Positions 8,710 through 59,705 are shown, counted from the first letter of the stretch. The stretch: DNA of 64,000 nucleotides from a virus (IMGVR_UViG_3300020193_000015), one strand, 5' to 3'. Program-made: numbers and translations. The notes: generated from the letters alone by a model not told the origin.

Positions 8710-8746
8710 GTGTCGTTTTATTCTTACGGGAATGGAAGGATGCACA
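8710..8746 (+). promoter_or_regulatory. conserved hairpin motif GTGYCGTTYTATTCTTACGGGAATRGAAGGATGCACA (copy A of 7)
   Basis: shared with 56207, 56569, 56970, 57801, 57882 and 59670; the stem has compensatory changes; ends in AAGGATGCAC. Confidence 0.55.
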
Positions 8747-8764
8747 GCAACAGAGAGCAAACTA

Positions 8765-9850
8765 ATGCGAAGTCACTTTTGGGATGTAGTGGTAAGGGGA
8801 TTTTTACCCATTCGTGATCCTGTATTAAAGGGAGATTTATTTGAAAAAATACCCCTTACAGGATCAAGGAATGAAATATTTAATTATTTAAATCAAAATA
8901 AAGTTGATTTAACAGCATTTGTAAACAATGAAGAAGATTGTGAACGGCTCTTTAGAATGTATTCCTATGCTGCTAGTGCCTTTATTCATTCCCAAAGTGA
9001 ACCGCCTACAAACGTTCTACCAAAAGAAATAGCCGTACCTTTAGTTAAGTTCTCTCAGATACTAGACAGAAAGCCAATTCTATCATATGGTAGCTATTGT
9101 TTAAATAATTGGCAAAGAATAGATGTTACCAAACCTGTAGAACTAGGTAATATTCGTTTATTGACGCATTTTTGCCCTATTCCATATAATCGGGATGAAG
9201 CTTGGTTTATTCTGGTGCATGTGGATATAGAAAATTCAGCAGCTTTGGGTATTTTTGCTTGTCATTCGATGCTTTTGCAAGACCCCTTAACACCTGAATT
9301 TGCTTTCTTTGTGCTTAATCAGATAAAAACCAGTCTGATTAACATGAATAAAGCCTTGAATAGAATGCCAGAAGAATGTAGCCCAGAGCATTATTTTTTA
9401 TTCGTTAGACCTTATATATTCAGCTTTGAAAATGTTGTTTATGAAGATTGTTTTCATGGTAAACCGCAAACTTTTAGGGGTGAAACAGGGGCACAAAGTT
9501 CTATAATACCTGCTTTTCTTGCAGCATTGGAGATAAAGCATAAAGATTCAATGTTGACTCATCATTTGCAGGAAATGCGGGATTATATGCCTAAAGACCA
9601 TCGCATTTTCCTGAATAATTTAGAAAATAGTTCTGTGCATCTAAGGGAAGTGGCTAAGAAAGACAGCAAGTTAAAGCCTTTATATAATGAATGTTTAATG
9701 CAACTTATTGATTTTAGAGAAAAACATTTTGAATATGCTATTAACTATATTGCTAATAAAGTAGAGAATCCTAAAGGTACAGGAGGAACACCTTATGTGC
9801 CTTGGCTTAAGCAGCTGAAAGAAGAGACTAAGCAGCAAATTTTGGAGTAA
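8765..9850 (+). CDS. hypothetical protein
   Basis: the ORF track begins at 8732 inside the hairpin motif; ATG 8765 is more plausible. Confidence 0.45.
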   Translation: MRSHFWDVVVRGFLPIRDPVLKGDLFEKIPLTGSRNEIFNYLNQNKVDLTAFVNNEEDCERLFRMYSYAASAFIHSQSEPPTNVLPKEIAVPLVKFSQILDRKPILSYGSYCLNNWQRIDVTKPVELGNIRLLTHFCPIPYNRDEAWFILVHVDIENSAALGIFACHSMLLQDPLTPEFAFFVLNQIKTSLINMNKALNRMPEECSPEHYFLFVRPYIFSFENVVYEDCFHGKPQTFRGETGAQSSIIPAFLAALEIKHKDSMLTHHLQEMRDYMPKDHRIFLNNLENSSVHLREVAKKDSKLKPLYNECLMQLIDFREKHFEYAINYIANKVENPKGTGGTPYVPWLKQLKEETKQQILE

Positions 9851-9852
9851 AC

Positions 9853-9987
9853 ATGAAAGATTATTTAAGGACAATCAAGCTTGGCATCGGAGAAGGTGAA
9901 CCCGGCAAGCAAGCATGTTGGATGAGTGCCCTTTCTGCGCATTTGGGCGGGGAATGGACAGATAGTTTGGAATGTGTTGATCCTTAA
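9853..9987 (+). CDS. 44-aa N-terminal module MKDYLRTIKLG..CWMSALSAHLGGEWTD..CVDP, paralogous to the N-termini at 38949 and 39938; ends in TAA
   Basis: direct sequence comparison; the gene junction GAGTAAACATGAAAGATTAT is also duplicated at 38945. Confidence 0.45.
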   Translation: MKDYLRTIKLGIGEGEPGKQACWMSALSAHLGGEWTDSLECVDP

Positions 9988-10601
9988 ACTTTGAGGCAAA
10001 TGGTCCTGGGTGGAGAGGAGACAATTATTATTTAACAGAAAAAGAAAATAATTGTTCGGTTTGTGGAGCTACAGAAGAATTAACTCGGCATCATGTTGTT
10101 CCATACAGTTATAGAAGATATTTCCCAGAAGAAGTAAAATCACATAATCATCATGATATTGTGCTTTTATGTGTTCCTTGCCATACCGAATATGAACGTG
10201 AGGCACGTAAATTTAAAAAGCAAATTATAATTAAGTATGGCATTTCGGTTAATGGTACTGGATATCAATATGACCATGAAATAGCAATAGTTAAAAGGTT
10301 TTCTGGTACTTTATTGGAACATGCCGCTTTAATCCCACAAGCTAGAAAAGAGGAAATGTACCAAGTTATAAAGGATTATTGCAAAAAAGATGTGACGACA
10401 GAAGATATGAAAAAGCTGGTTGAGACTTTAAACCCACATACATACTCAGAAGATCATTTAAAACATGCAGATGCAATTGCAAAACTGGTTGATATTCAGG
10501 AATTTGCTAGAGAATGGAGACAGCATTTTATTGATTCTATGCAGCCTAAATTCTTACCGCTTCATTGGGATGTGAATCGTTCTGTTTATAAGGAAAATTA
10601 G
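9981..10601 (+). CDS. HNH endonuclease (CSVCG..RHHVVP..HNHHD..CVPCH); no canonical in-frame start
   Basis: the frame opens at 9981 immediately after a TGA; the first in-frame canonical start is GTG at 10161, downstream of the zinc knuckle; a -1 shift at the stop of the 9853 ORF would fuse the two. Confidence 0.55.
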   Translation, partial: SLNFEANGPGWRGDNYYLTEKENNCSVCGATEELTRHHVVPYSYRRYFPEEVKSHNHHDIVLLCVPCHTEYEREARKFKKQIIIKYGISVNGTGYQYDHEIAIVKRFSGTLLEHAALIPQARKEEMYQVIKDYCKKDVTTEDMKKLVETLNPHTYSEDHLKHADAIAKLVDIQEFAREWRQHFIDSMQPKFLPLHWDVNRSVYKEN

Positions 10602-11023
10602 TGTATTCATTTATATTTGCATGCATTTTAGATTTTGTAGTAATGAAGAAAGTAAGAAAGGTTCTTTTTCCACTCAAGACACCATCTGAAATCTTCCTAG
10701 CTAGAATGAAAAAATATGCTAGTTGTCTTATAAGGCATAGTTATTTTTATGTTAGTTCAGAGGAAACGAGTAATTTTTTCAATATTTGTGCAGATTACCT
10801 TGATGCCATAAATACAGAAAAATGTCCTGATATGGCTAATTTTGTATTAAAAGAAAAATTAGAATTAATAGACGCAAAATGGTATGCATTAACATATAGC
10901 TCATACAATGGTGAAAGTAATTATTTGACTTATACTGCTGAAGTATGGTATTATCGCATAACAGGAGACGAAGACCCACTGGCTTCTAAAATGAGATATG
11001 TGGATATTTTAAAGAAGGTTTAA
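10601..11023 (+). CDS. hypothetical protein
   Basis: ORF track. Confidence 0.4.
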   Translation: MYSFIFACILDFVVMKKVRKVLFPLKTPSEIFLARMKKYASCLIRHSYFYVSSEETSNFFNICADYLDAINTEKCPDMANFVLKEKLELIDAKWYALTYSSYNGESNYLTYTAEVWYYRITGDEDPLASKMRYVDILKKV

Positions 11024-11024
11024 C

Positions 11025-12932: not shown

Positions 12933-12942
12933 GGATAAAGAA

Positions 12943-16415: not shown

Positions 16416-17588
16416 ATGCTTGTAGCAGAACGACATTATATACAAGAAACACTTGAAATTGTCCGACTATGTACATTAAGCAAAGAACTTTACAATAAAT
16501 GCAATTTCTTGATGAGGCAAGCATGGTTTATAAATGAAAAATTACCTAATATAAATTTGCTTGTTCGAGAGACAAAGCCATTAGACTGTTACAAAAACCT
16601 TCACAACACCAAAACAGCAGCACAAACAATACGTAAATGTCTTGTAGATTGGGCAAACTTCCTCAAAACCCTGAAAGCATACAAGAAAGACCCAACAAAA
16701 TTCAAAACTAGACCTAAACCGCCTTATTATAAAAATAAACTCACACAAATTATATTCTTTAATGAAACTATCAAGAAAAGACCATTGAAACAAGATGTAA
16801 TTACCCCAACGAACAATCTATTTTCAATTAAAAGTGACATTAAAGAATTTAAGCAAGTAATGATTACTCCTAAAACATTTGGTTTTATAGTAGACATTCA
16901 ATATGAAAAAGAAGTCAAGAAAGTAAAAGTAAGCAAGAATAGGTTTGCCTGTATAGATGTTGGTGTAAATAATTTAGCTACGATAACTTCAAACCAACTG
17001 GAGCATCCCATATTGGTTAATGGTCGCATACTAAAAAGCATCAATAGATTCTATAATAAAAAACCTAATAAGAATAATAGTAGGAAACGTTATTTCCGTA
17101 TTGAGAATTATTTCCATCATGCTTCTAAATTTATAATTGATTTATGTATTAAACATAAAATTGGCAAAATCATTATCGGTAAGAATGATGGTTGGAAGCA
17201 ATTTTCTAAAATACGAAAAGTACAAAACCAAAATTTTCAATATATTCCTTTTTATAAATTTTTAGATAAGATTAAGTATAAAGCAACATTAGCGGGCATT
17301 GAAGTTATATTTACTGAAGAATCATATACAAGTAAAGCAAGTTTCCTTGACCATGATTCAATACCAACTTATAAAAAAGGCAATAAACCTCCTACTTTTT
17401 CTGGTAAAAGAGATAAAGGAATGTATAGAACATTTAGACCTATTCATGCTGACGTGAATGGAAGTTTAAACATAGGATGTAAAGTATTCGGGGATAAAGT
17501 CTACAAGGCTTTCCCTGATAGGAGCATTGCCGCAATGCCAGTACGAATTAATCCATTGAAGATTTTTGCATATAACAGCAAAAATTAG
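16416..17588 (+). CDS. tnpB: TnpB-like (IS200/IS605 OrfB / Cas12-ancestor) RuvC-fold protein, 390 aa
   Basis: RuvC-I FACIDVGVNNLATIT; RuvC-III HADVNGSLNIGCKVFG; TnpB-like C-terminus; no CxxC..CxxC zinc finger; RuvC-II glutamate not evident (IIIGKND). Confidence 0.65.
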   Translation: MLVAERHYIQETLEIVRLCTLSKELYNKCNFLMRQAWFINEKLPNINLLVRETKPLDCYKNLHNTKTAAQTIRKCLVDWANFLKTLKAYKKDPTKFKTRPKPPYYKNKLTQIIFFNETIKKRPLKQDVITPTNNLFSIKSDIKEFKQVMITPKTFGFIVDIQYEKEVKKVKVSKNRFACIDVGVNNLATITSNQLEHPILVNGRILKSINRFYNKKPNKNNSRKRYFRIENYFHHASKFIIDLCIKHKIGKIIIGKNDGWKQFSKIRKVQNQNFQYIPFYKFLDKIKYKATLAGIEVIFTEESYTSKASFLDHDSIPTYKKGNKPPTFSGKRDKGMYRTFRPIHADVNGSLNIGCKVFGDKVYKAFPDRSIAAMPVRINPLKIFAYNSKN

Positions 17589-25167: not shown

Positions 25168-25177
25168 TTGTACCAAG
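25163..25177 (+). promoter_or_regulatory. conserved 15-mer TTTAATTGTACCAAG (copy 3)
   Basis: next ATG at 25219, which has an AGGAG RBS. Confidence 0.6.
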
Positions 25178-25218
25178 AACCGGAATCAGAGTTAAAAATA
25201 ACAAAAAAGGAGCTAATC

Positions 25219-26133
25219 ATGCGTCAAATTAGTTTTATTGTCACAAATGATGGGTCTATCTGTGCCTTTGCTAATAACAAGGCTTTCCCTCCCATCGCCA
25301 AAGATCATCCCAAGTATAACCAAGTAAAACAAGCCATCAAAGATGACAATGTTGATGAACTTAGTAAGCTTGTGGATATTGTGCAGCAGATTATCAATTT
25401 CTCTGATGGCAAGGTTGAAATCAAGGATGGGGTAGTTTATTACAACGGTCAGGCAATGCATAACGTGTTGACTAATAGGATTATTGGTCTTATGCGTGAA
25501 GATTTCCCATTTGCCCCTGTAGTTAAGTTTTTTGATAACTTGATGCAGAACCCATCTAGTTCCTCTGTAAATGAGCTATACACGTTCCTAGAGCATCGTG
25601 CGCTACCTATTACGGAAGATGGTCATTTCCTTGCCTATAAGCACGTTAGGGACGATTGGACTGATATTTGGACTGGCAAGATTGATAATAGTGTTGGCAA
25701 GGTTGTTGAAATTATCAGGAACCAAGTTGACGATGACCGCAACAAGGGCTGTTCTTATGGTTTGCATTGTGGAACCATTGAATATGTTAAAAACTATTCT
25801 GGTTCTGGTTGCAATGATGGTGGTCATTACATCATTGTTAAGGTTAATCCCAAGGATGTAGTTTCTGTGCCGTTGGAATCAAATTGCACTAAGCTACGTA
25901 CTTGCCGCTATGAAGTCCTTGGCATTTATAGTGGTGATTTGGTTGCTCCGCTTTATAATAATATGGGTGGGCCTCCTACTACCTTTGATGACCCAGAGGA
26001 TGAAGAGGAAGAGTACGAAGATTTTGATTTGGATAACGAAGAAGAGGAAGAGGAAGAGGAAGACGTTTTGGAAGCTGAGTTAGTAGACCCAACGGATTCC
26101 GATCATAGGTCTTTTAACCCAAATAACAATTAA
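25219..26133 (+). CDS. hypothetical protein with a poly-acidic C-terminal tail (DEEEEYEDFDLDNEEEEEEEED)
   Basis: ORF track (25168 alternative start); GAA/GAG triplet-repeat tract around 25990..26080. Confidence 0.45.
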   Translation: MRQISFIVTNDGSICAFANNKAFPPIAKDHPKYNQVKQAIKDDNVDELSKLVDIVQQIINFSDGKVEIKDGVVYYNGQAMHNVLTNRIIGLMREDFPFAPVVKFFDNLMQNPSSSSVNELYTFLEHRALPITEDGHFLAYKHVRDDWTDIWTGKIDNSVGKVVEIIRNQVDDDRNKGCSYGLHCGTIEYVKNYSGSGCNDGGHYIIVKVNPKDVVSVPLESNCTKLRTCRYEVLGIYSGDLVAPLYNNMGGPPTTFDDPEDEEEEYEDFDLDNEEEEEEEEDVLEAELVDPTDSDHRSFNPNNN

Positions 26134-26777: not shown

Positions 26778-27470
26778 ATGTTGAATGAAAACAAGATGGA
26801 CCTTAATTTATTTTGCAATAATCCAATATCAGCGATAAGGGCTATTTTAGCATGGCATTGGGGCAATCCTTTAATTGGCGAAGGTAATCTTTCTAAAGAC
26901 TTAGTAAGGGGATTACGTCTTACTAATAAATTTTGCAATGGTGATACCGATAATTTTACTCAATGGGATTTTTGGATTTTTCTTGATGAAAATGGAAAGA
27001 AAAGATGTAGCAAATGTCAAATAACAAAAGATACAGAAGATTTTAAAACTTCCAATAATTCCAAAGATGGTTACAAATCTGCTTGTATGAGATGTGAAAA
27101 AAATAGTGATTTGCTGAGCCAATATGGTATAACTTTGAAGCAATATGAGGCAATAGAAAAGAATCAAAATCATTGTTGTGCTATATGTGAATCAAAAGAC
27201 TCAAAAATTCCTAGAAAACATAGAAAAACTAAAATAGATGTATTTTGTGTAGACCATGACCACGATACAGGCGAAATAAGAGGTTTACTTTGTTTTAATT
27301 GTAATACTGGATTAGGGCAGTTTAAAGATTCTGCCGATGTTCTGGGAAACGCTTTGTGTTATTTGAGGAAGTTTAATTGTACCAAGAACGAGAAAAGTTC
27401 AACGAACAATCAAATAGGAAATACAAATGATTTTGGTACAGAACCCATTGAATTTGGAAAAGTCTGCTGA
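26778..27470 (+). CDS. endonuclease VII-family HNH nuclease
   Basis: CAICE..VDHDHDTGEIRGLLCFNCNTGLG. Confidence 0.75.
   Translation: MLNENKMDLNLFCNNPISAIRAILAWHWGNPLIGEGNLSKDLVRGLRLTNKFCNGDTDNFTQWDFWIFLDENGKKRCSKCQITKDTEDFKTSNNSKDGYKSACMRCEKNSDLLSQYGITLKQYEAIEKNQNHCCAICESKDSKIPRKHRKTKIDVFCVDHDHDTGEIRGLLCFNCNTGLGQFKDSADVLGNALCYLRKFNCTKNEKSSTNNQIGNTNDFGTEPIEFGKVC
27372..27386 (+). promoter_or_regulatory. conserved 15-mer TTTAATTGTACCAAG (copy 4)
   Basis: lies within the 3' end of the 26778 CDS (FNCTK); next ATG at 27427. Confidence 0.6.
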
Positions 27471-29466
27471 TGTTAAGCCATCTACTTTTAGGATTAAAGC
27501 GTCTCAAAAAGCTTTTGCGATCTTGTCGTCTGGTTTATATTCAGATAAGGTGTCATCGACCATCCGTGAATTGTCTACCAATGCCGCTGATGCCCATATC
27601 GCTGCTGGCAACAAGGAATCTTTTACCGTTCATCTGCCCAATACCCTTGAACCATTTTTCTCCGTAAAGGACAATGGCACTGGACTTTCCGAACATCACC
27701 TTAATACCCTTTATACAACCTATTTTGAATCAGATAAAACTCATTCAAATGACTTTACTGGTTGCTTGGGATTGGGCAGTAAGAGTCCATTTAGCTATAC
27801 CGATCAATTCACCGTTGAAAGCCGATTCAATGGCAACAAGTATACCTATAGTTGCTTCATTGATCAGGATGGATTGCCTTCTATCGCCAAGATGGGTGAA
27901 GAAGTTACTGAAGAATCCAACGGTCTAGAAGTTAAGTTTGCTGTTAAAAGTTCTGATTTCTGGGAATTTCAGAATAAGGCATCAAATATTCTATCTTGGT
28001 TTAATCCTCAGCCTAATGTTGTTGGCGTTGCTGGGTTTGAACTTACGCAACGAGAATACATTAGGAAAACTGATAAGTATGCTCTCCGCAAGGAAAAGCA
28101 TTATGGTGATGCGAGCCGATTGATCATGGGTAATGTTGCTTATAAGCTGTCTACCTACAGTCTTGGCAACAAGGTTAGTTTGGATGAACTTGACCGGCAG
28201 ATTCTAGATTGGGGCTGTGAAATCTTTGTCCCAATTGGCACTGTTGAAGTAACTGCAAACCGTGAAGATATTACTTATACTGAAAATAGTGCTAAGGTCA
28301 TTAAGGAATGTCTTGCTGAAGCTGTCAAGGATGTTAGGGGAGAAATTGATAACATGATAGCTTCCGCTCCTACAATTTGGGAAGCTAGGCGTGTTCTCCA
28401 TGATTCTCACCATTCCATCATTGGCAAGATTAAGAATTTAACTTCTGCTACTTGGAATGGTCAGGAAATTCATAGTTATGTAAGTTCTGCCAAGTGGAAT
28501 GAAAAGAACCCTGACAAGGAAATTAATATTCAGTTTTTGCGACGTAAGAAGGAACGTTTCGCAAAGAGCAATGGGCATAGCCACATTCACGCTGATAACA
28601 AGCCCATTTATGTGAATGACTTGGGGCATGGTGGTTACACAAGGGTTTTGCATGATTTAAATAAGAAACGCACAGATGAAGCTTACTTGCTGCAAAACAA
28701 TAACGTAAGTTTCTTGGAAGAAGCTGGACTAAAAGAAATTGTAATTCGTGCTAGTTCTTTACCTAAGCCTGAAAGCAAGCGTTCTTATGTTCCACGTCGC
28801 AAGGGAGTAAGGGCACAGCTTAATCGTTGGGTTGAATCTCATTCCTATAAAAAAGAAGCTTGTTCATATTGGCAACCAGCTGACGTTGATTTGGAACAAG
28901 GTGGCATTTATGTAGAAATGTCTTACTATAAATATACGTTGTTTGGTAATGAAGGTAATAGCCCAGACGGTTTGGAGTCTACCATCAGCGCTTTGTCGGC
29001 TTTCCATGAATCTGAGGATGGAAAATTGGAAGTTTTTGGAATTCGTTCGGCTGATAAGAAGATTCTGGAAAAGATGGATAACTGGATTAGCCTTGACGAT
29101 TATATCAAGGAAGTTGTTGAAGCTAATGAATATCTTGATGCCACTATCAAGATGAATAATGAATGGACTCATTATCGTGACAATCTTGCCGAAGCTTTCT
29201 TTAATGATGATTTGAGTGAAAAAACCTTATTTGGCCGTTATGTGGAATATTGCAAAAAGGCTTACAAGGCTCATTCCAGTGAAAGTCGGGCATATATTAG
29301 ACTGTGCGGTTTGGTTAATAAGAACATTGGAACTGGAACTAAGTTAAAGGAAATGCGGGATGAATTGCAGGCCAAGTATCCTTTGATTAGTTTTCTTAGT
29401 TCTTACGATACTCCTTACAACAGTAAAACTTTTAAGGCAGCACTTTTGAAATATGTGAAGGAGTAA
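27427..29466 (+). CDS. GHKL-family ATPase domain protein (Hsp90/MutL/MORC-like ATP-binding fold)
   Basis: IRELSTNAADAH (N box-like), VKDNGTGL (G1-like), GCLGLGSKSPFSY (G2-like). Confidence 0.5.
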   Translation: MILVQNPLNLEKSADVKPSTFRIKASQKAFAILSSGLYSDKVSSTIRELSTNAADAHIAAGNKESFTVHLPNTLEPFFSVKDNGTGLSEHHLNTLYTTYFESDKTHSNDFTGCLGLGSKSPFSYTDQFTVESRFNGNKYTYSCFIDQDGLPSIAKMGEEVTEESNGLEVKFAVKSSDFWEFQNKASNILSWFNPQPNVVGVAGFELTQREYIRKTDKYALRKEKHYGDASRLIMGNVAYKLSTYSLGNKVSLDELDRQILDWGCEIFVPIGTVEVTANREDITYTENSAKVIKECLAEAVKDVRGEIDNMIASAPTIWEARRVLHDSHHSIIGKIKNLTSATWNGQEIHSYVSSAKWNEKNPDKEINIQFLRRKKERFAKSNGHSHIHADNKPIYVNDLGHGGYTRVLHDLNKKRTDEAYLLQNNNVSFLEEAGLKEIVIRASSLPKPESKRSYVPRRKGVRAQLNRWVESHSYKKEACSYWQPADVDLEQGGIYVEMSYYKYTLFGNEGNSPDGLESTISALSAFHESEDGKLEVFGIRSADKKILEKMDNWISLDDYIKEVVEANEYLDATIKMNNEWTHYRDNLAEAFFNDDLSEKTLFGRYVEYCKKAYKAHSSESRAYIRLCGLVNKNIGTGTKLKEMRDELQAKYPLISFLSSYDTPYNSKTFKAALLKYVKE

Positions 29467-33800: not shown

Positions 33801-33910
33801 CCAGGACAGGAAAATTGTTTGTTACAGAAATTGGAGAATTGAATGCTGATATCGCCGCTGCTGCTACAATAGGAATGAAAGGTCTTGCAATAATCCTATC
33901 CAAAGCTTAA
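30848..33910 (+). CDS. cas12: type V CRISPR effector, Cas12-like (1020 aa; size and repeat suggest the Cas12i-like compact class)
   Basis: split RuvC motifs in TnpB/Cas12 order: RuvC-I MSIDPGIRSS (D about 32636), RuvC-II LILYENTQL (E about 33410), Cys-containing stretch SHNCFVTCKKKC, RuvC-III ELNADIAAAATIGMKGL (D about 33849); a 26-repeat array follows directly. Confidence 0.75.
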   Translation: MSQFKTVENFKDILMLKEKTTLRSYQLLLLDNHDLVEKTIDVYTKGASAWLDFWLTVLGGIEFEMIPLSPLSSYCITKKLKRKSQEDKEIFIPISEEALLFGCWFSLETNSNSPFIISVQDVWNKFKSYLPNNVKISYNWERTIKAQINSFVSENTCWVDRRKAFQDLSFKINVADLVCKKDFWLNKDVDSKLYMRSALGQWWNDGTKSDWVNLKIKCEQSIKFIEQESDIRNAKTKILQSLGLPDIAEAKEIGKAYGKKGKPSRVFIKLEKLTEDTTKDQLVKEFQEEIVNAEEHVAFKRCPWHAKIRENIEKAIGVSYFNEKGNSSQNNFGEMGNLALEKIKSWKSNFFNVLGERYHNCKSDFHDSEVKEWFEEYKKTNKQLRNSSLSGLEKVFDLLDNKSFEDAIKEAQKSYNILGRRFGDANFFNFLGNKIQSRKDKDWLKLIREYDNWDNVNYKFINHKSPRLKHFGDDHLATPRFGESRPTGNIKSTTGNSHSITLNVFDGKSFKLTKINSACKRLSNEIKDNQSIRQTKLSGKIFENYRILPKSLVKKGGLKLCKQNDKWYAHLTVNLPVFEKASWQKLMKTGTIIMSIDPGIRSSISYTIFEIFECDRDTDYFIENGITHVKIHSWEDHSGTKFKVPHNNLWVKLLEWGHIRDLQPIGENGYRQCRLDGGTNTNLDSEEIEFWKYLLITGVEQKDMPDPLPKRSEYSRIIANLINKWYTNKSKEITDKVKQLNINDPVEFSKTLQHVRKESDLSSELLIKASQILFVNNSDKIGRGGLSYARIKMLQTLSSACNKFLKVKENNAEIIEFQNFLRKKINAIRTERVRITVNKVLHEAVNNKVNLILYENTQLKSSSSSPRGLNRSITSWCPSKVIEELKKQIDLLPISIMGVNSAYTSHNCFVTCKKKCRYDKVHLDDLNIEPWKERITDIFTKKQLSLTDCLLKKGWENFLKENDLMSYKQIPEFVKNKKAFCLVPSRTGKLFVTEIGELNADIAAAATIGMKGLAIILSKA

Positions 33911-33997: not shown

Positions 33998-34035
33998 AGT
34001 CTCTCGCCCTTATTTAAAAATAAGGGCGAGAGACT
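33998..34035 (+). terminator. perfect 15-bp stem AGTCTCTCGCCCTTA/TAAGGGCGAGAGACT with loop TTTAAAAA
   Basis: read directly. Confidence 0.6.
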
Positions 34036-37450: not shown

Positions 37451-37638
37451 TAACAAGTGATGATCCTCTTACTGCAAAATTGATAAAGCTTTTGAACCGG
37501 GCACATGATATAATATGGCTCAATGCTTTAGAACCTATTTATAAAGAAGAGGTTTTGTCACAAGCAGAAATTGAAGCTTTTCTGATGGAAGTTGAGGAAG
37601 TAATATATAAGCCAAACCCAAAAGCCCCTGTAGTTTAA
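37429..37638 (+). CDS. hypothetical protein
   Basis: ORF track. Confidence 0.3.
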   Translation: MVREKLMITSDDPLTAKLIKLLNRAHDIIWLNALEPIYKEEVLSQAEIEAFLMEVEEVIYKPNPKAPVV

Positions 37639-37697
37639 TTGTGCAAAACGTGCTACTTTAGATAGCTAAGATGTGGGTTCGAATCCTGCCAGGGGCG
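37624..37697 (+). tRNA. tRNA with anticodon UUA (candidate ochre/amber suppressor tRNA)
   Basis: manual cloverleaf: acceptor GCCCCTG/CAGGGGC, D-stem GTTT/AAAC, anticodon stem TGCTA/TAGCT with loop CTTTAGA, variable loop AAGAT, T-arm GTGGG-TTCGAAT-CCTGC, discriminator G; unusual G at position 37. Confidence 0.55.
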
Positions 37698-38300: not shown

Positions 38301-38947
38301 TTAAAGTTTTAACTATAGAAGAAGCTATGTGGAATATAGGCCAATATAAACCTAGCAAAGTCAGACTTCCAAAGAAACTAGTTGAAATTGGAAAACTGAA
38401 AATCCATGCAGACACACAATATTACGATGCCTTTGCTAATTATTATAGCAGGCTAAAAACTCAATTGCCACATGATAAGTTCTGGCAAATAATTGAATTT
38501 CTAAGAAAGCTAATCGCAAATCGTGGTTTCACCTATGACAAATTAAAAACTTCCATAGATGAATTGTTCCGGCTAACTGCAACTGGAGAAAGCGAACACC
38601 CTGAAGGTGGTTTTGATGGTCCACATGTTGCATATAATTTCAAGGACTTATTGCAGTTCTGCTTTACATATGAAGGAATTTCCGATAAAATAGACCAGAA
38701 GCTTGATGACTTTTCTCTTGGCAGTGATGATTCTAGAGGCGATTTGATGGATTCACTGCCCTTGGCTGGTGTAAAAGTGTACGAAAATATACTAAATGGC
38801 ACAGTCAAGAATGAGCAAGATTTAGAAAAAGAATTGAAGTCATTGGCTAAAAAATGGTATGAGTTTATCCGAAATGGCGAAAACTATGTGTGGATGACAT
38901 TAAAGGAAGAAGCGGCAAGTAGAGCCTTAAATCTAATGATGGAGTAA
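38291..38947 (+). CDS. hypothetical protein
   Basis: ORF track (38279). Confidence 0.4.
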   Translation: MSKIKVLTIEEAMWNIGQYKPSKVRLPKKLVEIGKLKIHADTQYYDAFANYYSRLKTQLPHDKFWQIIEFLRKLIANRGFTYDKLKTSIDELFRLTATGESEHPEGGFDGPHVAYNFKDLLQFCFTYEGISDKIDQKLDDFSLGSDDSRGDLMDSLPLAGVKVYENILNGTVKNEQDLEKELKSLAKKWYEFIRNGENYVWMTLKEEAASRALNLMME

Positions 38948-38948
38948 C

Positions 38949-39641
38949 ATGAAAGATTATCTAAGAACAATTAACTTGGGGTAGGGAGTCGGTGAATCTG
39001 GCAAGCAAGCATGTTGGATGAGCGCTCTTTCTGCTCATTTGGGTGGGGAATGGACCGATACATTAGATTGCGTTGATCCTATCATTAATAGCCTTTGCAT
39101 AATTATTAATGATCTTTATTATATGGACAATAAGGGCAGAACCAATGACATTATGAAATTTGGTTTGTTTGCTCCATTGGGAACTAAAGGCACTTGGAAA
39201 GATACTGAGAAAAGACTATTTAAACTTGCGGATATTGCTATAAGAAAATGGGCAGCAACCGTGAGTTTTCATACAGGATTTATACAAGATGAAAAATTCC
39301 TAAGAAATTTGGATGAAATTGTAGATTTGCCTAGTCTTCGTAAAGCTAGAAATGATATTGAAATTGCAGCTTGTTATTTAATGAGTGAATTGGACATAAT
39401 AATTTATCATATAAAAGGCATTTTGATAATCCACGAAACTTGCAAGAGAGAAATGATAGCTAATTTATATAAGTTTACTGGAATTTTGATAGATCATATG
39501 GGTAGAAACGTTCTCGTAAAAGATCATTTATATTCTGCACTAAGAGAACTAATTGAAATGGGTCCACATGCACCAGAAGAACCTGAATATCCTGCTTGTG
39601 GTATTCCAAAGTTTCAAGAACTAGTAGGTATTAAAACATAA
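38949..39641 (+). CDS. paralog B1 (N-terminal MKDYLRTINLG.. module); in-frame TAG at codon 12 (38982..38984)
   Basis: ATG 1 nt after the upstream stop; the frame is continuous with ORF 39018..39641 except for the single TAG; the aligned position is Ile or Phe in the paralogs. Confidence 0.5.
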
Positions 39642-39653: not shown

Positions 39654-39682
39654 AGTGGATTAAAACAATGTGCTGCTGGCAC
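39654..39682 (+). repeat. orphan degenerate CRISPR repeat GATTAAAACAATGTGCTG-CTGGCAC (3-nt deletion in the hairpin loop)
   Basis: 18 of 18 nt plus TGGCAC match the array repeat; lies between the 38949 gene stop and the 39694 gene start. Confidence 0.55.
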
Positions 39683-39693
39683 ATAGGTATTAA

Positions 39694-39936
39694 ATGTCAA
39701 AGTTAACTGTTAGGACTATCTTTAATGGTGCAATGAATGCCAAGTATGAAGTTAGTATTCCTCTTAACAAGAAAGAAACAGAGGAACTTAAAAGTGCTTT
39801 GGAAGTGGTAAGAAAGTATGAGAAACAAGCTTTAGACGCCACAAAGGTATCTAGAAAGACAGAAGCAGTTGTAATTGATTATCTGGTTAAATCAAATAGT
39901 GTGCTTATCTCTGTTGAAGCTGGAGGTTTTGGTTAA
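39694..39936 (+). CDS. hypothetical protein
   Basis: ORF track. Confidence 0.35.
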   Translation: MSKLTVRTIFNGAMNAKYEVSIPLNKKETEELKSALEVVRKYEKQALDATKVSRKTEAVVIDYLVKSNSVLISVEAGGFG

Positions 39937-39937
39937 A

Positions 39938-40489
39938 ATGAATGATTATCTTAAAACAATCAAGCTAGGATTTGGCAAAGGCAAAAGGGGAGAACAAGGA
40001 TGTTGGATGAGGGTGTTCCACATTGCAGATACTGTTATTAGAGAGTGGACGCCAACTGTGTTAAGAAATTATTGGCACGGTTTACGGATCGGTTGTCCAA
40101 TGCACCTTTTATATCAAAAAATTGCTGATAAATTAGAAGAAATGCCTAAAATTTCAAAAGAAACATCTAAACTTTATCGTGTTTTAGATACTTTAAATGA
40201 AATGGAAATTAAAGAATTAAAATCTGCAAAAACTATTATTATGGCTGCATGTTTTCTTTCCATTAAACATAGTCGTATAATGTGTGATGGCATTGCCGAT
40301 TCCGTTGTTGGCACATTTCCTTGGCCTTGGTTAGAATTGAATGCCGACCGTGATCATAGAAAATACCTAAAGACCAAAGTTTACCCATTGTTAAGAGAAC
40401 TAATCGAAATGGGACCACATGCACCAAAAGAATCAGAATATCCTGCTTGTGGTGTACAAAAGTTCAAGGAAGCGGTGGGAATAGTTTAA
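39938..40489 (+). CDS. paralog B2 (MNDYLKTIKLGFGKG..CWM.. module; C-terminal LRELIEMGPHAP..YPACG shared with B1)
   Basis: sequence comparison; the ORF track starts at 39875. Confidence 0.5.
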   Translation: MNDYLKTIKLGFGKGKRGEQGCWMRVFHIADTVIREWTPTVLRNYWHGLRIGCPMHLLYQKIADKLEEMPKISKETSKLYRVLDTLNEMEIKELKSAKTIIMAACFLSIKHSRIMCDGIADSVVGTFPWPWLELNADRDHRKYLKTKVYPLLRELIEMGPHAPKESEYPACGVQKFKEAVGIV

Positions 40490-49569: not shown

Positions 49570-49640
49570 GGCCCCATAGCTTAAGAGGAAAGCAGGGTGC
49601 TTATAACGCCAAGACGGTAGTGCGACTCTACCTGGGGCTA
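49570..49640 (+). tRNA. tRNA-like gene, anticodon UAU by manual fold (atypical T-loop TGCGACT, G1-U72)
   Basis: acceptor GGCCCCA/TGGGGCT, D-stem GCTT/AAGC, anticodon stem GGTG/CGCC with loop CTTATAA, T-stem GGTAG/CTACC; a TATATAAT promoter-like box lies just upstream. Confidence 0.4.
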
Positions 49641-51038: not shown

Positions 51039-51114
51039 GCCCCTGTACCGGCTCCGGTTTCTACCCGGATGTACCGTAATTGGAATAGATGCAGGTTCGA
51101 GTCCTGCCAGGGGT
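51039..51114 (+). other. atypical tRNA-like element (same acceptor ends as tRNA 37624; canonical T-arm GCAGG-TTCGAGT-CCTGC; perfect anticodon-like arm TCCGG-TTTCTAC-CCGGA with UCU; no conventional D-arm)
   Basis: manual folding; cannot be fitted to a standard cloverleaf. Confidence 0.3.
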
Positions 51115-51180
51115 GCTTTTATCACTTTTAATAGCTTAAAAAGTCAGGCTGGCATAACAATGACATTCAACTTCATCTAA

Positions 51181-54050: not shown

Positions 54051-54054
54051 GATT

Positions 54055-54069: not shown

Positions 54070-54076
54070 AGAAAAC

Positions 54077-54775: not shown

Positions 54776-54982
54776 TTGTTAACTGCTTCCAAAAAGGCGC
54801 TAAAGGATTGCCCATTTTGTGGCCGAAGTCCTATTACTATTTGCACAGTGAACGATAAAACGGGAATATACGGATGTCAAGTAACTTGCGATGTATTTTG
54901 TGGTATTAGTTTATTTTTTAGTGCTTATGATAGAGAAACAGCAAGAAAAGGTGCAATTGAAAGGTGGACTAAGAGAATATGA
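54776..54982 (+). CDS. hypothetical Cys-rich protein
   Basis: ORF track. Confidence 0.35.
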   Translation: MLTASKKALKDCPFCGRSPITICTVNDKTGIYGCQVTCDVFCGISLFFSAYDRETARKGAIERWTKRI

Positions 54983-55821
54983 ACGTTGATGATTTAGGTT
55001 CACGCATGAAACTTTTTGAAGGACAGACTGAAGGAAATTTAATTCCTATGCTTCCTGCAATGTGCCGAATTGATGGAAGATCGTTTTCTAGTTTCACAAT
55101 GGGACTTCGCAGACCATATGATGAACGTCTTTCTAAGTTAATGGTTGATACTACTAAATTTTTGGTCAAAGAGACTTGTGCAACTTGTGGTTATACTCAG
55201 TCGGATGAAATTACTTTATCGTGGTATCACCCTACAATGCAAACCCAGATGTTTTTTGATGGTAGAATCCAAAAAATCAATTCTGTGGTCGCCAGCATGA
55301 CCTCTGTTTACTTTATTTCGCAGATTTTAACTAATGATGCATTGCCAATTGAATATGCTGCTAAATTGCCTCATTTTGATTGTAGGGTTTGGAATGTACC
55401 CAAATTAGAAGAAGCAGTTAATTGTTTCATGTGGAGAGAGTGGGATTGTACCAAAAACTCAGTTTCAATGGCTGCGCAAAATTACTACAAGCACAAAGAA
55501 TTAATGGGCAAGCACAGCGGAGAACTCCAAGAATTGCTTTTTCAAAAAGGGATCAATTGGAATGATTATAACAGGCATTTCAAGAGGGGGACTTTTGTTC
55601 AAAGACGAAAAGTAATTAAAAAGTTTTCGGCTATGGATATTGAAGCTTTGCCCCCAATGCATGAAGCTAGACTTAATCCAAATTTAATGGTAGAAAGAAG
55701 TGAAATTCAAGAACTTGATATGCCGCCTTTTATTAAAGTGACCAACAAGGCAGATGTAATTTTTAACGGTGCTGAACCTTTGACAGAATTTAATTGTACC
55801 AAGGAAAGCCATGAAAACTAA
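54979..55821 (+). CDS. Thg1-like protein (tRNA-His guanylyltransferase / 3'-5' polymerase family)
   Basis: [34 protein letters not shown] and [20 protein letters not shown] match conserved Thg1/TLP blocks. Confidence 0.7.
55789..55803 (+). promoter_or_regulatory. conserved 15-mer TTTAATTGTACCAAG (copy 10)
   Basis: inside the Thg1-like C-terminus (FNCTK); 7 nt upstream of ATG 55811. Confidence 0.6.
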
Positions 55822-56140
55822 AAAAGCAAAAAAAGCTTTCCTTGATGGCTATAAAACCTATTCCCCAGAGAAGGAAGGCTATGGTTCTCCCTCTGATTGG
55901 GTAGAGAATTTCCGTTCTAGGATGGGTTTAAATGAAGCCAAAGAGGTTCTAGGAGACAATGATCCCTTTAACATCCTTGGACTGCCTAAAGGGGCAAGCT
56001 GGGGCGAAATTAAGTCAGCCTACCGTAAACTGGCCATGCAAACTCATCCTGACCGCAACCCAGGTGATGAGGAAGCTGCTATTAAATTTAAGAAAGTCCA
56101 AGCTGCGTATGAAATTCTAGAGGCAAGATATAAGGAGTAA
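55811..56140 (+). CDS. J-domain (DnaJ-like) protein
   Basis: [49 protein letters not shown] with HPD. Confidence 0.8.
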
Positions 56141-56206
56141 ATTAAAGATAAAATTTTCCAGAAAGTTTTCTTTGACAAAAAGTAGCAAATTTGTTATTGA
56201 AGTTAT

Positions 56207-56243
56207 GTGCCGTTCTATTCTTACGGGGATAGAAGGATGCACA
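56207..56243 (+). promoter_or_regulatory. conserved hairpin motif (copy B)
   Basis: GTGCCGTTCTATTCTTACGGGGATAGAAGGATGCACA; a partial second copy (ATTCTTACGG..AAAAATGCAT) lies immediately before ATG 56272. Confidence 0.55.
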
Positions 56244-56271
56244 CCCATTTAGCATTCTTACGGAGATAAAA

Positions 56272-56508
56272 ATGCATGATGAAGGGCATTGGCGTTTAAA
56301 AGTAGATGAAGAGGGGTATTGTCCTTGGCATTTAACAGAAAAAATCGCTGTTAAATGTCATGAAGAAGGTATATCAGCAAAGGATGGATTTGGTCTAATC
56401 TATAAAATTGAAGGTGATGATCGTCCCAAATATGTTCGCTGGATAATATCTGACATACAATATAAAATAAATAGGTTAATCAATGCATTCTCAAAAACTA
56501 AAAATTGA
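56272..56508 (+). CDS. hypothetical protein
   Basis: ORF track. Confidence 0.4.
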   Translation: MHDEGHWRLKVDEEGYCPWHLTEKIAVKCHEEGISAKDGFGLIYKIEGDDRPKYVRWIISDIQYKINRLINAFSKTKN

Positions 56509-56568
56509 AAGTTTACCGATTGAATTGCAAAATATTTATGATAAATTGCATTGGTCAAAAGTATTGGA

Positions 56569-56605
56569 GTGCCGTTCTATTCTTACGGGGATAGAAGGAT
56601 GCACA
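56569..56605 (+). promoter_or_regulatory. conserved hairpin motif (copy C; no plus-strand gene follows)
   Basis: exact match to copy B. Confidence 0.5.
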
Positions 56606-56664
56606 GTGTATTCCTTTAGACTCCGAACCAATACATATTTGTGGCATGAATTGATTGTAATTTA

Positions 56665-56952
56665 TCATATAGGTCGATATTGTCTCGTAACAACTTCAAT
56701 ATTCTCTAATTCTTGTGGTAATGGCGGACTGTAAGCTGTATCATTAGGGTTTTCTTTTTGTATACTTCTGGCATTGTCAATAATTTGTCTTGCTTGAATA
56801 GGATTAATGATTTCTTCAGACGGTGCATATGGGTTTTTAGTTGGTCTGCCTAATTGTAATGCTTGATATGCAGCCAGAAAGCGGCCTCTACGGTATTGAT
56901 GCCTTGGATTAGGGATAAATTCGTCACCCATGAATTCTCTGAAAGTAACCAT
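56665..56952 (-). CDS. hypothetical protein (minus strand)
   Basis: fills a region with no plus-strand gene between hairpin copies C and D. Confidence 0.3.
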   Translation of the reverse strand: MVTFREFMGDEFIPNPRHQYRRGRFLAAYQALQLGRPTKNPYAPSEEIINPIQARQIIDNARSIQKENPNDTAYSPPLPQELENIEVVTRQYRPI

Positions 56953-56969
56953 GATAATTATCTATTCAA

Positions 56970-57008
56970 GTATCGTTCTATTCTTACGGGAATACGAAGG
57001 ATGTACTC
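56970..57008 (+). promoter_or_regulatory. conserved hairpin motif (copy D; 1-nt insertion; ends in GGATGTACT)
   Basis: read directly. Confidence 0.5.
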
Positions 57009-57026
57009 TAATCAACTTCAAGCAAT

Positions 57027-57041
57027 TTTAATTGTACCAAG
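57027..57041 (+). promoter_or_regulatory. conserved 15-mer TTTAATTGTACCAAG (copy 11)
   Basis: 21 nt upstream of ATG 57063. Confidence 0.6.
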
Positions 57042-57062
57042 GAGAAATAAAAAAGGAAAAAA

Positions 57063-57314
57063 ATGGCTAACCAATTACAAGTCCTGCGAATCCCTGTAAA
57101 AGATGCTCTGCCCGATAACGATCAATGGACGAATCGCTTCGAAATTCGTAGTCAAACCAGTAATCGTGTGTATATTGTGGCTCAGAATAAGGCTAAACGG
57201 CACTTCGGGTGCAGTTGCCCGGCGTACCGTGTTCACCGTCATTGCAAGCATCTGAAGGCTTTGGCCCTTCCTTGCTATGAAAAGCCTCATGAAGTTCAAG
57301 TTACTAAGGGGTAA
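57063..57314 (+). CDS. SWIM zinc-finger-like small protein
   Basis: CSCPAYRVHRHCKH (CxC..CxH). Confidence 0.4.
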   Translation: MANQLQVLRIPVKDALPDNDQWTNRFEIRSQTSNRVYIVAQNKAKRHFGCSCPAYRVHRHCKHLKALALPCYEKPHEVQVTKG

Positions 57315-57522
57315 ATTATGAAAAACCCTTTTGACCAATTAAGTTGGATAGGATTGTTGTTTTTGCTAGAACGCACAGACTTTAATGAACCTTAGATGGG
57401 TTTGGATTTGCTTCAACTATGAGACAAGAGTTGTTAGAGGCAGCGAATCGCAAAGTTCAAGCAAATAATAATGATCCAATTATGATGGGAGTTCTTCAAC
57501 AAATTCGCAAAAGATTAAATTA

Positions 57523-57792
57523 ATGGAAAAATATAACGGTCAAACACTTGGATGGGGACCGTGGCGTAAGGATTGGTATAGTATCTGTTCCGCACACAGA
57601 AACTACGATTCTGAATGCCATTTGTGTGCCGCTGGCCATTATTGCAATAAATGGAAGTTGTTTTTGTGGCATATCGTTTTTAAAATTTCCCCTAAGTTGT
57701 GGCAATGGTGGGCAAATCAGCCAAACAGAAAGTCTAGAAAATTCATTGAAGAGGTTTTCCCTAATCTAAGGCACGAAGATAACATCCAGTAA
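57523..57792 (+). CDS. hypothetical Cys/His-rich protein
   Basis: ORF track. Confidence 0.35.
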   Translation: MEKYNGQTLGWGPWRKDWYSICSAHRNYDSECHLCAAGHYCNKWKLFLWHIVFKISPKLWQWWANQPNRKSRKFIEEVFPNLRHEDNIQ

Positions 57793-57800
57793 AAACCAAA

Positions 57801-57838
57801 AGTACCGTTCTGTTCTTACGGGAATAGAAGGATGTACT
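57801..57838 (+). promoter_or_regulatory. conserved hairpin motif (copy E)
   Basis: stem TTCTGTTC/GAATAGAA with one G-U pair. Confidence 0.5.
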
Positions 57839-57881
57839 ACGCATAGACAGAAACTAAAATTTTGGATATAATATTGATACC

Positions 57882-57918
57882 GTGCCGTTTTATCCTCAAG
57901 GGGACAAAAGGATGCACA
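57882..57918 (+). promoter_or_regulatory. conserved hairpin motif (copy F); its embedded ATG (57912) is the likely start of the next gene
   Basis: stem TTTTATCC/GGACAAAA. Confidence 0.55.
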
Positions 57919-58196
57919 CATTACCAGATTTTGAATATAAAGGCTGGGAACTCAATGATGCCTTGAATGCCATTTATGCATATGATAAAGGTTTTACAGA
58001 TTCAGGCGTCAGTGATCCAATCATGATGCAGGCTGTAAGTGATTATTTTGGTAAACTGGATAGAAATCAAACTGAATTAGTTGTATCAAATTATCTGTTT
58101 AAATATTGTTTATCACCAGAGGCTATTATGGCTGGTTATGGTGTCGCTGATGCACAAGAATTCATTAAATGGTGGGAAGAAAATTTTTATTTATAG
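57912..58196 (+). CDS. hypothetical protein (MHTLPDFEYKGW..)
   Basis: the ORF track starts at GTG 57882 inside the motif. Confidence 0.4.
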   Translation: MHTLPDFEYKGWELNDALNAIYAYDKGFTDSGVSDPIMMQAVSDYFGKLDRNQTELVVSNYLFKYCLSPEAIMAGYGVADAQEFIKWWEENFYL

Positions 58197-58210
58197 AAGG
58201 GAGTAACTAA

Positions 58211-58597
58211 TTGAAACCAACTACTCGCAATATTATCGTTGACATTATTATCAGCGATCATCAAACTAAAGGCAATGCTTATCTGCCTCATCAAGATAAA
58301 GTTGAATTAACGAATTACTTAGTTCACGTTTTAGTTAATCCAGCGACATTAAAAAGGCATTTGCAATTCTTAGCTGATATGAATGTTAAACCTAATTGCG
58401 CAGTAGATAGCGAAACGGCCAATTTGATGCTTCATGAAGGTTTAGATAATATTAATAAGTCGGCAATTGCTAAACTGGCTATTGATAAAATTGCTTTGAT
58501 TTTTCTTCATAGGCAAATCGACAAATTAACTCCTGAAAAGTGGATAAAGGCGATTGAAGCTGAAGGTGTTAAGAAGCTAGTACCTCAAGAGAAATGA
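58211..58597 (+). CDS. hypothetical protein
   Basis: ORF track. Confidence 0.4.
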   Translation: MKPTTRNIIVDIIISDHQTKGNAYLPHQDKVELTNYLVHVLVNPATLKRHLQFLADMNVKPNCAVDSETANLMLHEGLDNINKSAIAKLAIDKIALIFLHRQIDKLTPEKWIKAIEAEGVKKLVPQEK

Positions 58598-58598
58598 A

Positions 58599-58871
58599 AT
58601 GAAATATTTTCTTATTGTTTTATGTTTGTTCATTTGTGGATGCAGAAAACAAAATAATAAAGCTGTAGAAGCTGTGTCTGTCCGACCCGTTTTTGCAAGC
58701 CAAGAAGATTTTTTATCTCAATTTCCAACAGATTCAAAAAACATCAAAGATATTGGCAATGGCTGGTTTACATTTGATTGTGTAGTTTCGGGAAAAAACA
58801 GAACCTTTTTGCTGGGGCGATATAGAACCTACGGCAGCTATATCTCAGGGACAATTACGGAGTTAAAGTGA
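58599..58871 (+). CDS. putative lipoprotein
   Basis: MKYFLIVLCLFICGC lipobox. Confidence 0.4.
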   Translation: MKYFLIVLCLFICGCRKQNNKAVEAVSVRPVFASQEDFLSQFPTDSKNIKDIGNGWFTFDCVVSGKNRTFLLGRYRTYGSYISGTITELK

Positions 58872-59025
58872 TAAAGTGATGACTATGACCAAAGAAGATT
58901 TAAAGGATTGCGATGAAACACCCACTTTAATTCTAAGTTTACCTGAACATGGTTTAATTGTAAATGTAGTTGATCTTGTAGCAAATAGAGAAGATAATTC
59001 AGTTAGAGTAATAGTAAGAATTTAA

Positions 59026-59391
59026 ATGGAAGGGAAAGTGATGGACCAAAAAACATGGCAGGAATTCTATTGCAATAAATGTCCAGGCGGCAACTACATC
59101 ATGGTCAAACTCAATATAGGGCTTGACTATACTGTAGCTGTTGTTTGCCCTATGTGTGGCGCTAAACATGAACGCACAATTGAAAAGGGGCAAATCTTTG
59201 ATAGAGGCAAAAAAAATAATTATATAGAAGAAATCTGCCCACCTAAATCTGCTTGTAGTAAAGAAGCAAGACATTCTAAAATTAAACCTGGAGCAAGAGA
59301 TGGTGCTATAGTTAAAACAGATAAAGATTTAGTCAGAGATAGCATCATGCGTGAACTTTGGTTAAGCTATCATGGTGGCGAGCAAGATTAA
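59026..59391 (+). CDS. hypothetical zinc-ribbon protein
   Basis: CNKCPGG..CPMCG. Confidence 0.4.
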   Translation: MEGKVMDQKTWQEFYCNKCPGGNYIMVKLNIGLDYTVAVVCPMCGAKHERTIEKGQIFDRGKKNNYIEEICPPKSACSKEARHSKIKPGARDGAIVKTDKDLVRDSIMRELWLSYHGGEQD

Positions 59392-59668
59392 TGGTATTGA
59401 ACTTTTAAATAAAAAGCATCTCGGTTGGAAAGAAAAGATTGATAAAGATAAGATCAAGATGGAATGGGGAAATCCTGAACCCTTTACCGGCTGCGGTTGT
59501 ATTTTGACACAGATTTATGGGCTATATGCTAAAGGTTTGTTAGAAGTGTGCCCAGATTATAAAGAAAAAGGCGGCTATCGTGGTTCTGCTGTTTACTATG
59601 GTTTTACGATAGCTGAATCAGATACCTATTTCAATGAATTAACAGAAGAATGGAAAAAACAATTATAA
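59372..59668 (+). CDS. hypothetical protein
   Basis: ORF track. Confidence 0.35.
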   Translation: MVASKINGIELLNKKHLGWKEKIDKDKIKMEWGNPEPFTGCGCILTQIYGLYAKGLLEVCPDYKEKGGYRGSAVYYGFTIAESDTYFNELTEEWKKQL

Positions 59669-59669
59669 T

Positions 59670-59705
59670 GTGCCGTTTTATTCTCAAGGGAATAAAAGGA
59701 TGCAC
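59670..59705 (+). promoter_or_regulatory. conserved hairpin motif (copy G), perfect stem TTTTATTC/GAATAAAA
   Basis: read directly; an MHEKTTRD uORF, then the gene at 59729. Confidence 0.55.

Follow-up and report, generated by a model that had tools for sequence, protein, structure and literature searches.

Hairpin copies in the window

The window analysed here, a 64,000-nt stretch of viral DNA (IMGVR_UViG_3300020193_000015), carries a family of 36-nt hairpins that recurs between its genes and is the subject of this report. G+C content is ~35%, GC skew is positive throughout and almost every gene lies on the + strand. The window is a portion of a large uncultured phage, judging by its gene content, which includes rIIB (25168-26133) and rIIA (27427-29466), and by the top GenBank match of rIIA, an uncultured 595-kb phage at 37% identity. 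Near-identical contigs are present in several JGI, ENA and SRA assemblies. The hairpin family consists of eight full copies and one truncated copy; every full copy is on the + strand and every one is intergenic. Seven of them had been reported by an earlier reading made from the DNA alone (the sequence-only reading), and all seven are in place, with a single start corrected from 57801 to 57802. As that reading had also said, six of the seven fall within 56207-59705, a ~3.5-kb stretch of ORFans without Pfam matches.

Five window copies (8710, 56207, 56569, 57802 and 59670) matched a consensus scan allowing up to 3 mismatches, for which no match is expected by chance, and repeat finding added 56970, which has a 1-nt insertion, and 57882. 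A covariance model, R1, built from the seven window copies and run with filters off over the 64 kb on both strands, recovers exactly these seven at 57-63 bits, and the next best match reaches 14.8 bits. This weaker match, at 51045, sits in a tRNA-like gene and was set aside as coincidental. The eighth full copy was found by walking upstream of the window via a 12-kb contig (L102). Copies are identical across all contigs of the same phage population. Conservation ends at the edges of the 36-nt hairpin, and the 5' flank is not conserved. Contigs of independent assemblies (L001, L003, L007, L014, L016 and L017) end in copies 2, 3, 6 and 7 or at most a few tens of nucleotides away. The hairpin repeat therefore fragments metagenome assemblies of the phage, which is a practical warning for work on it.

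Copy 1 (8710-8745; 58.4 bits, -13.9 kcal/mol) lies 19 nt before the ATG at 8765 of an IDO-like gene. Copy 2 (56207-56242; 63.1 bits) begins 66 nt past the stop codon of a DnaJ-domain gene, and 10 nt after it comes the truncated copy (56253-56277, + strand), which keeps the 3' half only, CATTCTTACGGAGATAAAAATGCAT, with 3 mismatches in the 19-nt core. Having lost the pyrimidine-rich 5' strand, the truncated copy forms no hairpin. Copy 3 (56569-56604; 63.1 bits) is identical in sequence to copy 2, and the next gene is on the reverse strand. Copy 4 (56970-57006; 57.3 bits) is 37 nt long with a 1-nt bulge and stands upstream of a motif of another repeat family, TTTAATTGTACCAAG, and of gene 57063. 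Copies 3 and 4 bracket a reverse-oriented ORFan of 95 aa (56665-56952, - strand), whose codon-usage score is phage-like, at 0.23 bits/codon versus 0.006 or less in each of the five alternative frames; searches for its homologues gave repetitive-protein matches only and no real ones. A structured non-coding RNA between the same two copies was considered and rejected (folding z = 0.15). Copy 5 (57802-57837; 60.7 bits), with the outer stem GUAC/GUAC, starts 9 nt past the stop of gene 57523-57792. Copy 6 (57882-57917; 58.0 bits) contains the AUG at 57912, with which a 94-aa gene (MHTLPDF...) is annotated to begin. Copy 7 (59670-59705; 61.2 bits) lies 1 nt past the stop of gene 59372-59668 and 23 nt before the ATG at 59729 (MRRG...). 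Copy 8 (L102 6146-6181, + strand), 3.1 kb before the window start, reads AAGGAAGCAC and has no ATG.

The copies share a strand-specific RNA fold

As RNA, every copy adopts the same hairpin, (((((.(((((((((....)))))).))).)..)))), with 14 bp and a free energy of about -9.5 to -14.1 kcal/mol. The outer stem pairs positions 1-4 with 33-36 and adds C5:G30, with G6 opposite G29 and with A31 and U32 bulged. The inner stem has 9 bp (positions 7-15 with 20-28) and is capped by a tetraloop. The pyrimidine-rich 5' strand, GUGCCGUUCUAUUCU, thus pairs with the purine-rich ribosome-binding strand, GGGGAUAGAAGGAUGCAC, and the outer stem, GUGC(C)/G..GCAC, takes in the AUG's G together with the entire second codon. 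The hairpin is kept as the minimum-energy fold in native contexts of 90-150 nt. No Rfam family matches it at or near threshold.

Among the six distinct window sequences, 98.8% of pair cells are paired. Changes on both sides occur at three pairs: 3:35 (GC/AU), 9:27 (CG/UA) and 13:22 (UA/CG); slid controls gave zero. One compensatory change is in the outer stem, where G3:C34 is replaced by A:U, giving GUAC/GUAC in the copy at 57802, and an outer stem of the GUAC type is found in two copies. The copy at 57882 has a single A.C mismatch in the inner stem. Compensatory changes and G-U pairs had already been noted from the sequence, and the changes are real; the inner stem had been taken as 8 bp instead of 9, and the outer stem had been overlooked. 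Invariant in all eight copies are C5 G6 U7 U8, paired with A27 A28 G29 G30, and the 2-nt bulge, whereas variation is seen in the distal stem, the loop and the outer stem. The sequence-only reading also placed an AAGGA and an ATG at the 3' end; the AAGGA is present in 8/8 copies and the ATG in 7/8, copy 8 having AAG instead.

Folding energies are -9.5 to -14.1 kcal/mol for the sense RNA, -0.8 to -11 for the complementary strand and only -3 to -5 for the DNA form; because of its G-U pairs, the fold is specific to the sense RNA. These data support selection on sense-strand RNA secondary structure, where the earlier proposal had left RNA or DNA open and the weak DNA form speaks against the latter. 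The covariation support is modest, coming as it does from a small sample in one genome, and the sample grew by only one extra copy because the nearest relatives carry no motif.

Promoter-like sites and start codons around the copies

Three of the copies have a sigma-70-like sequence just upstream, all on the + strand. A candidate promoter, TTGACA-17-TATTGA (56172-56200; 9/12 matches), ends 6 nt before copy 2. The site TAGACA-17-TATAAT (57844-57872; 11/12) ends 9 nt before copy 6, with copy 5 lying upstream of it, and TTAACA-19-TATAAT (59639-59669; 11/12) abuts copy 7 and overlaps the end of the upstream gene. Sites with at least 11/12 matches are found at 0.1% of random positions. Several copies would accordingly stand within a few nucleotides of a predicted host-type transcription start. 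Copy 8 lies 34 nt past a canonical intrinsic terminator that closes a phage sigma-factor gene, which is just upstream of the window (contig L102), and therefore any transcript of the next gene must start near the hairpin. Downstream of the copies themselves there is no terminator-like site; the hairpins lack T tracts, and none was rated as terminator-like.

Some genes use the Shine-Dalgarno (SD) sequence or AUG that the element supplies. The AUG of copy 6 at 57912 starts the 94-aa gene, as the sequence-only reading had it, and this gene is called alike in ten independent contigs. In copy 8 the AAGGA stands 7 nt before the GTG start (L102 6184) of an ArdC-like gene. The truncated copy supplies an SD (GGAGA) and an ATG-CAT start to gene 56272-56508 (MHDEG...), the codon usage of which was checked. 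At copies 1, 2, 4 and 7 the true start codon lies 19-56 nt downstream of the hairpin; the starts at 8765 (IDO) and 59729 (MRRG) were fixed by alignment with homologues or orthologues. Within the hairpin the AAGGA touches the AUG without spacing, and clear SDs in this phage's genes lie ~5-8 nt upstream of the start codon.

Distribution of the hairpin family

The pattern CGTTNTNTNCTNANGGGNANNNAAGGATG, verified to detect the local copies, had no match in public viral, metagenome and genome collections, in which the small contigs of this phage are evidently not included. BLAST of the motif against GenBank phages returned only chance matches inside Gordonia phage genes. Relatives were sought with the Thg1-like protein, a 280-aa protein, the IDO-like protein and the Cas12-like protein. 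The covariance-model search that the sequence-only reading had called for recovered the seven copies in the window, and the motif is absent from 1.4 Mb of viral loci encoding Thg1 relatives. The flanking genes have their nearest relatives at 32-54% identity; these are without the motif, and at the orthologous sites they have plain SD-start junctions. Since these sites lack the element, the hairpin has spread recently, and the family is therefore young and lineage-specific.

Interpretation and alternatives

We tentatively favour a reading, somewhat short of probable, in which the hairpin, working as sense-strand RNA, is a portable leader cassette peculiar to its lineage and resembles the promoter-early stem-loops (PeSLs) of phages. 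It builds on the copies themselves, on their strand-specific fold and covariation, on their positions relative to genes and promoter-like sites, and on the use of the SD/AUG by some genes. From these we infer where transcription starts, what the element does to translation and stability, and a part in recombination. The hairpin would hold its SD/AUG module closed against the complementary pyrimidine strand. Where the gene itself uses the module (copies 6 and 8), the closed form would throttle translation or make it conditional. As a 5'-proximal stem-loop, the hairpin would probably also shield the mRNA from 5'-end-dependent decay and insulate the downstream start region. The dispersed 36-nt homology would mark gene-cassette junctions, as PeSL elements do in T4-like phages. 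The cassette stands in intergenic leaders of small accessory genes, which are probably expressed early.

Several observations weigh against this reading. A convincing promoter-like site is found at only two to three of the eight copies, with a gap to the hairpin of 0-9 nt; copies 3, 4 and 5 have no promoter signal, the predicted transcription start for copy 7 would fall within the 5' strand of the hairpin, and every transcript 5' end is a prediction. Relative to PeSLs, the promoter here is outside the conserved repeat and its spacing is variable, only the 36-nt hairpin being conserved. Copy 3 has no downstream gene on the + strand. In five copies the true start is 19-56 nt downstream, so that the masked SD/AUG does not belong to the gene, and those downstream starts usually have their own SD-like purine stretch. 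The covariation is based on only seven distinct sequences. Finally, all recovered contigs are collinear with the window, and neither cassette shuffling nor rearrangement was observed.

It is somewhat unlikely that the hairpin is instead an operator for a trans-acting factor, that is, a repressor of the RegA or coat-protein kind, an antiterminator of the N/boxB type or an activating small RNA, with the leaders forming one post-transcriptional regulon. The irregular SD region, invariant in 8/8 copies, is the most conserved part of the element, as an operator would have it; the location is sense-strand and leader-proximal, and an element common to many accessory genes suggests co-regulation. However, variation is about equally frequent at unpaired (3/8) and paired (11/28) positions, and bases that might serve as contacts are thus not conserved in excess. 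The neighbouring genes, which lack Pfam matches, yielded no identified RNA-binding protein, and an antisense copy of the hairpin 5' half is absent from the window. A separate and very remote reading would have the hairpin mimic the CRISPR RNA (crRNA) handle of the phage's own Cas12i-like effector, which would bind or process the leaders; the CRISPR repeat ends in GUGCUGUUAUUGGCAC, and the closing-stem letters GUGC(Y)...GCAC are common to the motif and the repeat hairpin. A solitary repeat at 39655-39683 shows that repeat-like hairpins do occur in leaders of this genome. Yet the best match, 9/10, is equalled by 40/400 shuffles of the repeat (~10%), the 5' flank of the motif is neither conserved nor similar to the processing region of the repeat, and two copies have the other stem, GUAC. 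The sequences 3' of the hairpins show only chance-level seed matches elsewhere. Just as improbable is a phage-wide post-transcriptional regulon in which this divergent effector reads the hairpins as operators; were it so, a CRISPR effector would also serve as RNA-binding regulator or as processor of accessory-gene leaders. The model put forward in the sequence-only reading, in which the AUG opens Met-His (MH) leader peptides that control the downstream genes via attenuation or coupling, is highly doubtful. The AUG is there in 7/8 copies, the short open reading frames of copies 2 and 7 stop 1-2 nt before the gene's AUG, and two genes begin MH (57912 and 56272), where several had been claimed. 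Such stop-start juxtapositions in 2/7 copies are expected by chance at ~15%, by a rough estimate. The upstream open reading frames, said to run to 6-9 codons and to begin MH, turned out to have 4, 6, 8, 10, 25 and 32 codons, and two begin MY. Their products (4-32 aa) are unrelated and have only M-H/Y in common, and this MH/MY start is a by-product of the outer stem, because its GCAC or GUAC strand dictates the second codon. Copy 8 has AAG for AUG, the AUG elsewhere is base-paired and has no spacing from the SD, and transcription attenuation finds no terminator after any copy on which to act.

That the family is a selfish or neutral spreading repeat, resembling miniature inverted-repeat transposable elements (MITEs) or repetitive extragenic palindromes (REPs), is unlikely. 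Such a repeat would multiply by recombination or in the form of a single-stranded hairpin, with only incidental use of its SD/AUG by neighbouring genes. Confinement to one phage lineage would fit, the motif being absent from the three collections, GenBank phages, the 1.4 Mb of related loci and the orthologous sites; so would the truncated copy, the metagenome contigs that often end inside copies, and the TnpB genes, one in the window and one, with a Cas12f1-like_TNB domain, in L102. The sequence-only reading had named a MITE as its alternative. Target-site duplications are absent, the longest abutting duplication being 0-1 nt at all eight copies, and what is left of that alternative is a non-autonomous spreading repeat. 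The copies have a single orientation, all are intergenic, and the population contigs show no insertion polymorphism. Because of G-T pairs, the DNA hairpin has little stability (-3 to -5 kcal/mol) and that of the other strand even less, and the compensatory changes argue for purifying selection on pairing after the copies diverged. No Y1 or RAYT transposase was found among the proteins scanned (~30/~100, from 73 kb out of a genome that spans 112 kb or more). R1 gives no motif-like match at or near the window TnpB gene (16416-17588), and IS200/IS605 ends were rejected as a source of the hairpin on this ground. An intercistronic processing site or 3'-end stabiliser in long transcripts, akin to REP stabilisers or the RNase III sites of T7, is rather improbable. 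Here the positions are suggestive, in that copies 5 and 7 begin 9 nt and 1 nt past upstream stop codons, copy 5 is upstream and not downstream of a promoter, and copy 3 is at a convergent-gene junction. Nevertheless, a bulged stem of 14 bp is short by RNase III standards, the hairpin lacks a U tract, and copy 8 comes after a proper terminator and directly adjoins a start codon. The invariant SD-like tract would also be left unexplained.

Other features of the phage

The type V effector is a protein of 1020 aa (30848-33910) that matches PADLOC models for Cas12i (E = 4e-24) and Cas12b in the C-terminal third alone. Pfam and PHROG give no match, and among 5.8 billion proteins a word-indexed search matched nothing but the effector's own sequence. 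A CRISPR array of 26 repeats (34260-36080; repeat GTTGCAATAGATTAAAACAATGTGCTGTTATTGGCAC) has spacers of 35-39 nt plus three short ones of 15, 25 and 25 nt, and none of the spacers matches the window itself. Between the Cas12-like gene and the CRISPR leader lies a perfect 16-bp inverted repeat, AGTCTCTCGCCCTTAT...ATAAGGGCGAGAGACT (33998-34035). The solitary unit at 39655-39683, GATTAAAACAATGTGCTGCTGGCAC, is the only repeat unit outside the array; its loop is 3 nt shorter, and the ATG at 39694 that follows it after 10 nt opens an 80-aa gene. Candidate roles for the unit are a crRNA-like regulator and a Racr-like RNA. The 14 nt after hairpin copy 8, CTGTGACAAACAAT, have a 13/14 match at 33814 (- strand), preceded by TTT and within the 3' end of the Cas12-like gene; with a chance probability of ~0.05 by rough estimate, we take it for a coincidence.

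Copies of the repeat family TTTAATTGTACCAAG number 12 in the window, each on the + strand (19726, 23735, 25166, 27375, 40488, 48446, 50217, 52903, 54058, 55792, 57030 and 62876), and more are found outside it (L102 4533 and 4916; L099 8900, 15058 and 20345). It usually ends 9-12 nt before a start codon, and it precedes those of rIIA, an AAA ATPase gene and DnaJ among others. In contrast to the hairpin family, it has a counterpart in a distant relative, a 527-kb phage contig in which the core AATTGTACC is enriched, and because of this the family is probably a clade-wide promoter-type signal. A 58-nt repeat, ACTATAATAATTTATTATGCCTGTCCAGAGGCTATAGTATCTGGAAG, occurs at 1913-1970 and 8608-8665 with 93% identity and includes a TATAAT and a small hairpin; the second copy ends 45 nt upstream of hairpin copy 1. 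There is also a paralogous gene family, MKDYL.TIKLG...QACWM, with 73-82% nucleotide identity at the gene starts. Its members lie after the IDO gene (9847-9984) and on both sides of the solitary CRISPR repeat (38943-39080 and 39932-40011; 39541-39631 and 40392-40482).

The IDO-like gene behind copy 1 (8765-9850; Pfam IDO, E = 5e-58) encodes a protein whose nearest homologues, 50-59% identical, are mostly from metagenome contigs, the named ones being Gemmataceae. A gene for a Thg1-like tRNA-His guanylyltransferase is followed by the DnaJ-domain gene (54979-56140); Thg1 relatives are frequent in large viral contigs, with identity up to 53%. The two TnpB/Cas12f-like genes (window 16416-17588 and L102 1299-2525) have OrfB_IS605 and TNB domains, the latter in L102 being Cas12f1-like_TNB, and no Y1 transposase was detected beside either locus. 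The window has at least three tRNA-type genes: a suppressor tRNA (37624-37697) with the anticodon UUA, which reads UAA; a tRNA detected by Rfam only (49570-49640); and a tRNA-like gene (51039-51115; 36.1 bits), missed by ARAGORN, with no D arm, a long variable arm and an apparent anticodon UCU. A sigma-70-type promoter matching at 11/12 positions ends 12 nt before the last of these. The highly divergent Cas12i-like system, the solitary repeat in a gene leader and the suppressor tRNA are arguably more unusual than the hairpin.

Comparison with known systems

If the portable leader cassette is the right reading, an uncultured large phage would have copied a compact 36-nt part, an insulated and masked ribosome-binding site, before many of its accessory genes, and the copies would mark cassette junctions in a plastic region of the genome. 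The wider impact is modest, because the element is lineage-restricted and its function inferred. In SD-sequestering hairpins, such as translational operators, RNA thermometers and cis-repressed leaders, a pyrimidine strand pairs with the SD or start codon. The same is seen here, where the SD and start codon are paired in a stable, covariation-supported hairpin. The difference is that most copies mask an SD/AUG that the gene does not use; the lack of an Rfam match also sets the element apart. A second likeness is to 5'-terminal stabilisers, among them the ompA and papA leaders and the polypurine or STAB-SD elements of Bacillus and phage SP82, which combine a stem-loop near the 5' end with a non-initiating, SD-like polypurine tract. 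The hairpin likewise has an SD-like polypurine tract, and its place at or near the 5' end is a prediction. With REP and MITE repeats it shares the form of an imperfect palindrome of ~36 nt that is intergenic, multi-copy and assembly-breaking. It differs from them in its single orientation, its lack of target-site duplications, its strand-asymmetric pairing and the absence of a cognate transposase among the proteins scanned.

The closest parallel is with the PeSLs, intergenic cassettes of promoter, stem-loop, SD and ATG that are clustered among ORFans (PMC2839356, PMC4122927). Here too a repeated intergenic element lies amid small ORFans of a large phage that has rIIA and rIIB, its stem-loop includes G-T/G-U pairs and carries an SD plus start codon at its 3' end, promoter hexamers of the sigma-70 type stand beside some copies, and copies flank single-gene cassettes. 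The stem, however, is A/U-rich where that of PeSLs is GGGG...CCCC, and the SD and AUG lie inside it. Recombinant arrangements and mini-circles are not seen in the contigs, which come from one population and are collinear. As the promoter is not in the repeat and the stem shows no terminator character, we call the element PeSL-like and not a PeSL. The preferred reading, if correct, would take the PeSL concept outside the cultured T4-like phages and apply it where an RNA hairpin, not a promoter, is the conserved part.

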